In this document: piece by piece, positions 32,601 to 35,600 of the stretch
Position numbering within the stretch: position 1 is the stretch's first letter
How the letters are laid out: each line of letters starts with the position of its first letter
Assembly (NCBI RefSeq): GCF_030013205.1
Contig: NZ_CP122648.1
Length of the DNA: 64,000 nt
Source of the DNA: Escherichia coli
Lineage (GTDB): Bacteria > Pseudomonadota > Gammaproteobacteria > Enterobacterales > Enterobacteriaceae
Reading direction: 5' to 3' (one strand)
Program-made: the position numbers

Positions 32601-35600
32601 CACGCGCAAACAACGCCTGCAATTTGTTGTAATCACCCTCGTTCGGCAACTGCCACTGACTTGTACCAAACCAGTGTGACGCCATGTTTTTCTTTCCGGT
32701 CGCTTCCGCTATCTGTTTCGATGTTACCCCAAGTGATTCACGCGCATCACGAAAGTAAGAAATCAGCGGGGCCATGACGTGCTGTTTTAGCTCGCGCCCC
32801 TTTGCCGCATAGCCGTCATTTTTGGGCTGGTATGGCCCCTGATAATGTTCTGCAAACAGAATACGTTCTGTTGCCGGGAAATACGCCCGCAGGCTTTCCT
32901 TGTTGCATCCGTTCCAGCGTCCAGACGGCTTCGCCCAGATAATGTGGTTCAGCACATTAAAGCGTTCACGCATCATGATTTCGATGTCAGACGCCAGGCG
33001 ATGACCACAGAACAGGTAAAGACTTCCGGTGGGCTTTAATACACGCCAGAATTGTGCCAGACACTGGTCCAGCCATTTCAGGTAATCATTGTCGCCCTTC
33101 CACTGGTTATCCCAGCCCTCGGGCTTCACTTTAAAGTATGGCGGGTCTGTGACTATCAGATCGACAGAGTTTTCCGGTAAGGTCTGGATAAATTCCAGGC
33201 AATCAGCGTTGATTAACTCGCAACTGGATATTTTTACAGTATTAGCCATAGATCAATAAGCACTTCTCTGATAGGCTCATACCGCTTTTGCGCAAAGCAG
33301 ATGGGCCTGAGGTTTGCTTGTGACCCCAACGCATGAGCAGATGGCTGGCAGGTGCCGCTAACACCCACCAGCCGCCCATTACCACAAATAAAAAAGCCTT
33401 CACTGCGGAAGGCGTCTGTAACAACCGAACTGATAATCTGCCAGACCCGCCATAACAAGCTGAGTCAGTATTAACTGGCAGCGTTCGCGTGAAAGGTAAG
33501 TATTCTGCGCAATTTCCCCGACGGTCGCCGGTTCGGTGACGCTTAATTCATTAAACACCACTCTGGCGGTTTCGGTCATATCCTGCTGTTTTAGCATGTC
33601 TTTTTTCCTTTTCTGGTTAACATGACATACCAATAACTCTTGTCGAAAAAGCCAGCAAGCTGAAAGACCGGTATTCGCAACCACCAGCGCGTTTAACGTC
33701 CTGTGCCGTTTTTCAGGTATAAAAAACCCGCCAGGCGACGGGTTTAAGCTGTGTGGCGAAGTAACCACTCTTAACAGGATATCCGGATTTTTACGATCGT
33801 AAACATCTTTATGCTACTTAGTATTCTCCGTCCACACATATAGGCAAATTCGTATATCCCGGTTTATGCGCCATATTCAGCGGCGCACAAGTCGGTACAT
33901 TTTTTTTCTGTTGAAACGCTGTCCTCTCTCGCAGGTCTGGTTGGCTATTTTTTACATTTGGTGCTTTTTTGCTCGCCTTATTTATTTTTTTCTTTTGAAT
34001 TGCTGGTTTTGAATCTTCGTCCTGTTTTATCTCTTTGCCCTTGCACACTCCAAAATAATCAACATATCCCTCCGAGCAAACTTCCTGCTTACTTGCGCTG
34101 TTATCCCTATAATAGTGATGATGCTGCGAACGATGAGATGATCTTTTATGTCTCCGTTTTGCGTCCGCAAAAGAAGAAAAAAGCAAACACATCACCAATG
34201 TTAAGAGTAATGATTTTTTGAACATATCCATCCTGTTTACTGTATTACCAAAAACTTTTGCTATTCTCTCCATTGCGCCGCTGTAAAAAATGACATAAAT
34301 CAAACCGACACAGCCCAATCCATCTCCAGTGAGACATTCAGCATCATCAACATACCATCAATTACCCCTTCTGCTTTTTGTAGACGTTTACCAATACACG
34401 TATCAGAACACCCGTGTTTACGTGCCAGCGCCATAAACGTCATTCCCCCAACGTAATAATCCACCAGTAGATCATGCTGATCTTTGTTATTCTTATTCAG
34501 CCGGGCCATGCACCCACAAATGATCATTGCGTCATCGTCGGAACATTGGGGACGTGATTTCACCTTCGACGGTATTAACCCTTTAAAACCTGCAGCAATA
34601 GATGACCATGTAACATCCTCGTGGTTATTTGCCACCCACGCCCCCCATCGCTCCAGAACCATCTGAATATCACGCGCCATCGTTATTACCTCTGATTTCG
34701 TAAATCTTCACGCCCAGTCGCCCACCAGGAACGACCTGACCGCGCACAATATTGATTTCATCAAACTGCTCGTCGTCGATAAGCAACCCCGCATGTGTCA
34801 GTGCATCCAGTGGTGCTTTCAGAATATTGTCCAGGTCACGACGGCGCTTATCCGGCGGCTCTGCAATGATCTTTATCGCCAGCCTTCCGGACAGGTTTAA
34901 TTTCAGCCGCTGCTGGCGAACAATGAGCGCCACATCACGGCGATAACGCTCACCGGCTTTTGATACAAAATATGTGCTGCCACGACGACGCCAGTAGGTG
35001 TTCACCGTTGGCGGGTAAGGCAAAACAAATTCTATGCGTTCAGTCATTCATGCTTTCCACTTCAGGACACCCGAATTTCTCGCGTGCATTAAAAAACGAA
35101 TCAGCAACAACAGCTGGCTGCCGTGTTTTTCTTCAAAATCTTTTACCCCGGCGTGCAGTTCGTTATGACATTTACGGCACAGCGGAATAACAAACAAATC
35201 ATCAGCCTTTGTTCCCATACCTCCCAGGCCATGACCAATGATGTGATGCGGATCATCTGCCTGATTACCGCACGTCATGCATTTCTGCGTTTTTACCCAG
35301 CGCGTGTATACAGGCATCTCTTCCCGTTGTGGTTTCTGGCGCTGGAGATACTGAGCCGGTGCCTCCGGATCAACGGCGATGCTTACTACCGTCTTTTCCT
35401 GTGGTGGGTTTTGCTGGTGGGCGTGAGGCAGCGGCGCAAGATTTTTTGTGCGCTGCTTCAGTATGCTGGTGGCGGTCTGCTCTCCCGGTACGATGTCGCT
35501 TTCGCGGTAAACCGAGCGGATTTTTTCCGCTGGTAATCCCAGCGAACGGCGCGATACAACCTCAGGTAGTGCATCCACCACCTGATTACAGACCGCCCAC

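Follow-up and report, generated by a model that had tools for sequence, protein, structure and literature searches.

A gene for a predicted exported basic protein in an optional cargo site that separates Q from the late promoter in a Stx2e prophage of Escherichia coli

A small gene directly follows the antiterminator gene Q in a Shiga toxin 2e (Stx2e) prophage of Escherichia coli, and its position raises the question of which transcript it belongs to and what kind of gene it is. We analyzed this gene in a stretch of 64,000 nucleotides (nt) of contig NZ_CP122648.1 (assembly GCF_030013205.1), hereafter called the window, in which the regulatory and toxin part of the prophage lies on the minus strand. 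An earlier note on this DNA had placed the late promoter in the gap between Q and the gene and had read the gene as a lysogenic-conversion moron expressed upon prophage induction. We found that the gene is under purifying selection and is carried by an optional cassette upstream of a homologue of the late promoter pR′. We lean, with modest confidence, towards reading the cassette as optional cargo, whose gene is co-transcribed with Q and whose exported basic product has an accessory role at the cell envelope.

A pR′ homologue downstream of the gene

The elements from Q to the end of the promoter block were, in the order of transcription, as follows.

34300..34680, minus strand: antiterminator Q gene, 126 aa, Q933W-type (PF06530, E 8.5e-54), stop codon at 34300-34302
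34226..34299, minus strand: Q-gene spacer, 74 nt, belonging to the mobile cassette
33818..34225, minus strand: exported-protein gene, 135-aa precursor (WP_063084977.1, 'hypothetical protein' in RefSeq, with a 166-aa start)
33776..33803, minus strand: pR′ homologue, -35 TTTACG (33798-33803) and -10 TATCCT (33776-33781), aligned with the annotated pR′ of 933W
33753..33768, minus strand: qut/initial-transcribed hairpin GTGGTTACTTCGCCAC, aligned with the annotated qut of 933W
33719..33745, minus strand: GC-rich hairpin and U-tract AAACCCGTCGCCTGGCGGGTTTTTT, terminator-like, directly after pR′

The late promoter of this prophage was located by alignment with phage 933W. Three annotated elements of 933W, namely pR′ (TTTACG-16-TATCAT), qut, and the first hairpin, matched window positions 33803..33719 on the minus strand in a base-for-base alignment; in 933W the block reads TTTACG-ATCGTAAAAATCTGCA-TATCAT-GATAAGAGTGGTTACATTGCCAC...AACCCGCCG..CGGGTTTTTTT. 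The 16-nt spacer of the window promoter is ATCGTAAAAATCCGGA, the probable Q-binding half, and the promoter was the top hit of a sigma-70 position weight matrix (PWM) in the region. The pR′-qut-tR′ block of 933W and of the Sakai prophage Sp5 (StxS region) is homologous, with the -35 TTTACG, the spacer ATCGTAAAAAT, qut, and GC hairpins. The window block differs from it in having TATCCT rather than TATCAT as the -10, and in its distance from Q: in the 933W record the 3′ end of Q and pR′ overlap, with qut and the hairpin coming next, whereas in the window a cassette parts the block from Q, and the block begins 14 nt past the stop codon of the cassette's gene. The pR′-qut block was present in one copy per locus, invariably 3′ of the cargo. 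The assignment is supported by Sakai Sp5, where 258 nt separate this promoter from the terminator closing the stretch read, which equals the PR′-tR′ distance of 258 nt mapped in Sakai by differential RNA sequencing and Term-seq (Sy et al., PMC7547250).

With the pR′ homologue at 33776-33803 and the stop codon at 33818, the gene sits between Q and pR′, outside the Q-dependent late operon, and therefore neither Q antitermination nor constitutive pR′ activity would drive it. The claim that the late promoter precedes the gene was thus not borne out: the pR′ homologue is 3′ of the gene, and the gap after Q had no promoter-like site. On this corrected map for edema-disease strains, the distance from Q to the stx2e late promoter exceeds that in 933W by about 500 bp, and the toxin transcript does not include the intervening gene. 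We also considered an arrangement in which the gene lies between pR′ and tR′ and is constitutively expressed, a possibility raised by a strong TTGATT-16-TAAAAT site after Q in phiP27, and dropped it for the window once 933W had been aligned.

The upstream half of the promoter varied with the type of Q. The Q protein of the window was 81% identical in amino acids to that of 933W across residues 1-121 and was distantly related to Q21 (PDB 6P18, E 1.3e-9). All loci with a Q933-like Q shared the -35/spacer half TTTAC[GA]ATCGTAAAAA, the hexamer being TTTACG except in PhiR40_1, while this half differed in phiP27, Stx2_EH2201, and Stx2a_1447, whose Q proteins were only 46-50% identical. The downstream half (GTTAAGAGTGGTTAC...) was common to all these loci. 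Because it co-varies with the Q allele, the -35/spacer half looks like a Q-binding element that would specify which Q acts on which promoter, with the architecture of such an element taken from the Q21 structural paper. At the positions corresponding to window 33782-33803, loci with a Q933-like Q had TTTACGATCGTAAAAA, whereas those with the less similar Q proteins (L002, L003, L004) had either TTGCGGAATTCCAAAAA, GTGCGGTCCGCAAAAA, or another, third variant.

The 61-nt stretch with the qut hairpin and the GC hairpin folds at -19.2 kcal/mol (z = -2.6). The sequence of the GC hairpin differed across loci and the inverted repeat was retained in each, as judged without counting pairs. The hairpin at 33719-33745 may be a partial terminator, a pause, or a Q-loading element, and a -10-like TTACTT within qut is a candidate sigma-dependent pause element. 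In Sakai Sp5 the homologous GC hairpin (L135, 660-690) is apparently read through, as the mapped transcript runs on 258 nt to a second terminator.

An occasional cargo site between Q and pR′

The cassette that separates Q from pR′ in the window has the following extent.

About 34317 (end of the Q core) to 33804 (pR′ -35), minus strand: cargo cassette, about 510 bp

The Q933-type pR′ pattern was present in exact form in 102 IMG/VR contigs that we surveyed, 96 of which had a Q homologue upstream. The -35 begins exactly 62 nt past the Q core in 87 of the 96 contigs, which is the 933W state with an empty slot, and nine (about 9%) hold insertions of at least four kinds. Insertions of 507-515 nt carried the exported-protein gene family in two contigs, and a third gene-bearing contig was cut before Q. 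Insertions of about 800-817 nt encoded a DnaD_N/helix-turn-helix (HTH) protein, and one of 1,581 nt encoded an ORF6N protein together with a reverse-strand exported protein. At further loci, the slot is occupied by gene L22 of phiP27, which matched a PD-Lambda-1 defence model at E 2e-89, by an ORF6N gene (strain C311), by two reverse genes (Stx2a_1447), and by a reverse gene for a 148-aa protein (PhiR40_1). A reverse gene for an OmpD/NmpC-type porin follows Q in PhiR70_1, but the stretch of PhiR70_1 that we examined did not show the pR′ pattern.

These cargo genes share their position with the window gene. L22 of phiP27, the ORF6N genes, and the PhiR70_1 porin gene are all optional and directly follow a PF06530 Q gene, and in phiP27, C311, PhiR40_1, and Stx2a_1447 the slot also precedes the conserved pR′-qut block, as in the window. 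The Q proteins all diverge right past ...LEMD, the end of the conserved core, which thus marks the left edge of the slot; the last five codons of the window Q (WAVSV) occurred only in cassette-bearing loci. The other cargo is unrelated in sequence, and several of these genes either code for nucleases or DNA-binding proteins of the cytoplasm or lie in reverse orientation with their own signals. Unlike those, the window cargo is a gene for a small exported protein on the strand of Q. Outside the window, the slot corresponding to 33804-34317 held at least five unrelated cassettes (L002, L004, L006, L030, L031, L048, L067, L126). The Q-pR′ junction is an occasional cargo site in Q933-type lambdoid phages, with mutually exclusive alternatives. 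As it can carry a recognised defence gene, other occupants of the slot, the exported protein among them, are reasonable candidates for functions in phage competition.

Among the six Escherichia lineages with the gene, it always directly followed a Q933-type Q, and other alleles were found in prophages without stx. The gene had a GC content of 39.5%, Q one of 47%, and the window one of 48.3% (48% in round figures), so that the AT-rich composition remarked on earlier was evident. The moron reading of the earlier note therefore stood in part: the gene is an optional insertion of atypical composition with a signal peptide, as a mobile accessory gene would be, and the late-promoter logic failed, with pR′ downstream of the gene. 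The gene has no terminator of its own, as the next hairpins belong to pR′.

Start codon, selection, and family

The reading frame ends with TAA at 33818-33820 and, in our assignment, starts with the ATG at 34225, giving MFKKSLLL.... A mechanical open reading frame call extended it to 33818..34318 (166 aa), with a TTG start 19 nt inside Q. This 166-aa start of RefSeq and its annotation pipeline (PGAP) and the 151-aa 'MERIAK' start of other database entries were both rejected, because the added residues lack conservation in each case and would place the signal peptide inside the protein. The in-frame extension contains a stop codon in L007 (the E. albertii-type allele) and a 2-nt deletion in L011. 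The RefSeq/PGAP start that overlaps Q is probably wrong. The ATG at 34225 (MF[KRN]...) is the sole start kept in all homologues, and a Shine-Dalgarno AGGA lies 5 nt ahead of it at 34231-34234. The gap of 74 nt (34226-34299) that results agrees with the earlier estimate of about 75 nt.

The family is very small. A word-indexed search of 5.8 billion proteins gave 10 clusters, and when 1.84 billion representatives were searched exhaustively with a hidden Markov model of the last 50 residues, only 17 proteins came up at E up to 0.001. Homologues in Escherichia, including E. albertii, were 57-95% identical, and full-length alleles kept 135 aa (137 aa as called in lineage L028). Among five 135-codon alleles, which were 50-81% mutually identical, pairwise dN/dS (the ratio of nonsynonymous to synonymous divergence) was 0.13-0.31, and in the neighbouring Q it was 0.03-0.06. 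Both genes had similar dS values and so have diverged together. Truncated variants (P0003, P0008) were present in other lineages. The constant length, the low dN/dS, and the conserved signal peptide and C-terminal motif show that 33818-34225 is a genuine coding gene under purifying selection.

Searches of Pfam, NCBIfam, and PHROGs gave no significant match for the window protein, PADLOC-DB 2.0 gave 0 families at E up to 0.01, and a PDB profile search with the C-terminal motif only gave nothing at E up to 10. No homologue of the gene was found in 50,697 phage records by blastn and tblastn. In these searches the protein resembled no lysis or structural protein (holin, endolysin, spanin, or virion protein), a likeness that the earlier note had named as refuting its reading. 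The papers on Stx2e prophages, the comparative paper on pR′, and the YdcA literature do not mention the gene. Its product belongs to an uncharacterised family, and as accessory cargo of a prophage it is of a familiar kind.

Features of the protein

Two parts of the gene encode the conserved ends of the protein.

34166..34225, minus strand: signal-peptide coding part, residues 1-20, MFKKSLLLTLVMCLLFSSFA, with predicted cleavage before DA
33836..33895, minus strand: C-terminal Cys-loop motif PTCAPLNMAHKPGYTNLPIC, residues 111-130, with Cys113 and Cys130

The signal peptide consists of the n-region MFKK, the h-region SLLLTLVMCLLFSSF (Kyte-Doolittle mean 2.63 over residues 7-17), and the cleavage motif S-F-A|D-A. 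By a rule-based test, its n-, h-, and c-regions and the residues at -3 and -1 agree with export by Sec and cleavage by signal peptidase I. It was kept in every family member out to Chimaeribacter (ADA motif), as was the C-terminal motif, and the clear signal peptide seen in the earlier note was thereby confirmed. The only lipobox candidate under the pattern [LVI][ASTVI][GAS]C was LVMC, which has M at -1 and whose Cys is missing from the distant homologues P0009, P0010, P0014, and P0018. The mature part of 115 aa contains 17 K, 7 R, and 6 H (including the cluster HRSQHHH) and has a pI of 9.62, as basic and as rich in His and Lys as had been described.

Conservation was concentrated at the signal peptide with the following DAKR...HRS, and at the C-terminal motif. 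The consensus of the latter, PTCAPLxMAHKPGYTNLPIC, has 15 invariant columns in nine sequences, including two invariant Cys. An AlphaFold2 (AF2) model from the nine-sequence alignment was mostly disordered, with a predicted local distance difference test score (pLDDT) of 55 and a predicted template modelling score of 0.20. Residues 3-25 were modelled confidently as the signal helix, residues 63-106 had pLDDT below 50, and within the mature protein confidence was confined to the C-terminal loop (pLDDT about 81).

In three distant relatives, P0009, P0010, and P0014, a YdcA-like N-domain is joined to this C-terminal motif and preceded by a similar signal peptide that ends in ADA, and P0009 and P0010 matched YdcA models at 5e-24 and 1e-19. 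Membership of the window protein itself in the YdcA family (PF27300 / PRK10040 / phrog_6000) was rejected, as neither NCBIfam nor PHROGs gave it a hit at E up to 1, and an hhalign comparison of its mature N-region with the YdcA-like domain (four-Cys CSGSKGGISHC...VCNDGS...C) gave a probability of 0.15%. Because the distant relatives carry a YdcA-like domain that the window protein does not match, we describe the family as modular, with a signal peptide, a variable N-module, a Lys-rich linker, and a C-terminal Cys loop. We also considered a relation to ankyrin repeats. Eukaryotic ankyrin repeats have a TPLHxAxxxGH core to which about 14 residues of the motif (CAPLxMAxxPGYT; CSPLYMASQNGYT) are similar. 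Through the likeness of CAPLNMAHKPGYTNL to the core of one ankyrin subgroup (GCSPLYMASQNGYTDI), the C-terminal profile drew in such proteins at E 1e-10 summed over repeats (P0017, P0023). Membership was rejected, as the window protein has a single partial copy where a tandem 33-residue helix-loop-helix repeat is expected, and no Pfam Ank match; the likeness is probably a chance or convergent coincidence of a short motif.

Expression of the gene

In the reading that we favour, the cassette was inserted between Q and pR′ of the Stx2e prophage next to ompW, and the gene would be the last of the early-right operon, transcribed with Q upon prophage derepression and left out of the Q-dependent late transcript that carries stx2e. 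Co-transcription with Q is most likely because the gene is upstream of pR′ and has neither a terminator nor a convincing promoter between it and Q. No terminator-like site was found there, the RNA structure of the 74-nt spacer was not significant (z = +0.83), and the spacer contained neither a consensus sigma-70 site nor a conserved PWM hit. Expression might then still be tied to induction, by read-through from the early-right operon together with Q. Sec would export the precursor and signal peptidase I would cut it after Ala20, yielding a protein of 13 kDa that would be strongly basic, disordered for the most part, and located in the periplasm or envelope. Its 20-residue C-terminal loop would be closed by a Cys113-Cys130 disulfide and may serve as a binding element on a flexible basic tether.

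Several observations weigh against this reading. The spacer holds blocks (TTTGAyTT, TCATTTTTT, and GAGAGAATA) kept among five cassette-bearing loci, and the spacers of two other alleles, L007 and L011, carry a good TATCAT -10 with a plausible -35, so that a cassette promoter may lie within the spacer. The protein matched no defence, exclusion, or other characterised family in Pfam, NCBIfam, PHROGs, PADLOC, or the C-terminal PDB profile search. Chromosomal relatives in other Enterobacterales adjoin toxin-immunity genes rather than phage genes: they were found near colicin/pyocin immunity, CdiI_2, SymE, and Fic genes (L018, 4561-5417; L027, 628-1424; L010, 2931-5396). Frameshifts in at least six of 22 near-identical copies argue, if real, that the gene is dispensable. 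Lastly, the prophage is defective and an IS481-family element lies between the immunity region and Q, so that transcripts begun at the early promoter may stop short of the gene.

The state of the prophage is as follows. No holin, endolysin, or spanin genes were found after stx2eB (window 27500-30570), where only a truncated small-terminase open reading frame (29005-29442) and tail-fibre-like fragments are left, while the lineage members UMNF18 and JNEC-KY178 retain two holins and an M15 peptidase. The window copy of the Stx2e prophage is therefore defective and unable to lyse the cell. The W13-16 record, which matches the window, shows the prophage adjoining ompW with an immunity region of DicA/DicC type. 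The element that separates this immunity region from Q is the following.

37188-38261, plus strand: IS481-family transposase gene, 357 aa, intact in the window

It lies in the early-right operon, in the opposite orientation, between a SIR2-family gene (about 38590-39549, minus strand) and hokD (36961-37116, minus strand). The insertion could be polar on Q expression, and hence on stx2e.

The main rival to co-transcription with Q is that the gene is an autonomous lysogenic-conversion moron, with its own weak sigma-70 promoter in the spacer, expressed in the lysogen regardless of induction, and with a product whose target is the surface of the bacterium or the pig host (for example as a colonisation factor or a cationic host-targeting peptide). 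It is the main rival because related alleles show a plausible TATCAT -10 in the spacer, although we regard it as unlikely. L011 has TTGGCT-16-TATCAT and L007 has TCGATT-18-TATCAT at the homologous place, about 90 nt of upstream sequence is conserved in an AT-rich cassette, and the allele is limited to one Stx2e prophage lineage that occurs nearly exclusively in porcine strains. In the window, however, the counterparts read TGGGCT and TGTCAT, the critical -11 being G, and the consensus scan of the spacer was empty. The pig association may be hitch-hiking with stx2e, other alleles reside in stx-less prophages, and frameshifted copies are common. The spacer also bears a weak likeness to the Q933W 3′ tail (ATTTTAyCAGCG...AATAG), which was too short to call.

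Frameshifted copies bear on two further explanations. The window allele was present in 22 of 5,426 complete E. coli genomes, all copies being at least 99% identical. At least six of the 22 carry single-base indels at four sites (33907, 33971, 33992, and 34043; L020-L024), which lie in A8, A6, A7, and 2-A runs, respectively, and which frameshift the gene and cut off the protein before the C-terminal motif. The other 16 copies appear intact (13 identical to the window, and three with substitutions only, which were not translated). The indels could be due to real decay, phase variation, or homopolymer sequencing error. If they are decay, the gene would be a passenger that once functioned in ancestral phages but that, in a prophage both defective and immobile, is at present undergoing drift or loss and has no current role. 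The independence of the indels, the truncated P0003 and P0008 in other lineages, and a prophage lacking lysis and most morphogenesis genes fit this view. We nevertheless consider it improbable, given the 16 copies that appear intact, the purifying selection across alleles, and the placement of the indels in homopolymers, where long-read and 454 assemblies frequently err. Slippage in the poly-A tracts of Lys codons (A6-A8) might alternatively toggle the C-terminal module and make the exported protein phase-variable; the frameshifts arose independently in these runs and in a 2-A run in near-identical genomes, but tracts of six to eight A are short for efficient switching and sequencing error explains the indels equally well, and we think this very improbable.

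Least credible, and hardly tenable, is the model of the earlier note with pR′ in the 74-nt gap and the gene first in the Q-dependent late transcript, since the arrangement of most lambdoid phages, 933W and the 87 contigs among them, with pR′ directly after Q is set against a single 933W-homologous pR′-qut block 3′ of the gene and a gap that has no promoter-like site and is unlike the pR′ -35/spacer sequence paired with this Q type.

Possible role

The role of the protein might be an accessory function at the envelope to the advantage of the prophage, such as receptor masking or blocking the entry of competing phages. This is a guess from the export signal and the kind of genes in the same slot, and nothing in our analysis ties the exported protein to disease. 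The placement of the chromosomal relatives hints that the family travels with competition islands.

Lambda bor and lom are late-region morons with their own promoters that are expressed in lysogens, and encode a lipoprotein and a beta-barrel protein, respectively. Like them, the window gene is a small accessory gene for a putative envelope protein on a lambdoid prophage, and bor and lom are dispensable for lytic growth; unlike them, it has no lipobox, barrel, or demonstrated promoter and lies upstream of pR′. P1 Sim, T5 Llp, and phi80/N15 Cor are small phage-encoded, envelope-directed exclusion or receptor-masking proteins, of which Llp and Cor are lipoproteins. As functional analogues of an exported protein that is expressed early they are plausible, with no similarity in sequence or structure. 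Going further, the Cys loop PTCAPLxMAHKPGYTNLPIC might be a new module of exported proteins borne by phages and mobile elements that docks on an envelope component (a phage receptor, or machinery for outer-membrane protein assembly or stress sensing) and gives an exclusion or competitive benefit, which would make the Q-pR′ junction an unrecognised defence/exclusion hotspot of Q933-type lambdoid and Stx phages; we hold this to be speculative and rather doubtful.

Prophage lineage and neighbouring genes

The query was 100% identical to E. coli O139:H1 W13-16 and other porcine E. coli of the Shiga toxin-producing and enterotoxigenic types. The three loci inspected (W13-16, UMNF18, and a human isolate) all belonged to the same Stx2e prophage lineage, and this allele-bearing lineage is almost solely found in such porcine strains. 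The order of genes on the minus strand was DUF968, RusA, Q, the exported-protein gene, an L23-like gene, a methyltransferase gene, tRNA genes, stx2eA, and stx2eB. The features downstream of pR′ were as follows.

33400..33597, minus strand: L23-like first gene after pR′, 65 aa, homologue of phiP27 L23 (phrog_331), with a weak TrmB-like HTH
33396-33413: terminator-like site, following the 65-aa L23-like gene
33249-32191, minus strand: DNA methyltransferase gene, third gene after Q
31812-30847, minus strand: stx2eA
30834-30571, minus strand: stx2eB

An Rfam scan of 31500-35500 found tRNAs alone and nothing else. Three phage tRNA genes lie upstream of stx2e, and the middle one (31987-32067, minus strand, at the argN position) is annotated as 'tRNA-OTHER' by PGAP. 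It was undetected by ARAGORN and Rfam, while the flanking tRNA-Arg(TCT) and the tRNA with a CAT anticodon (ileZ type) were normal; the middle gene is probably a degenerate tRNA.

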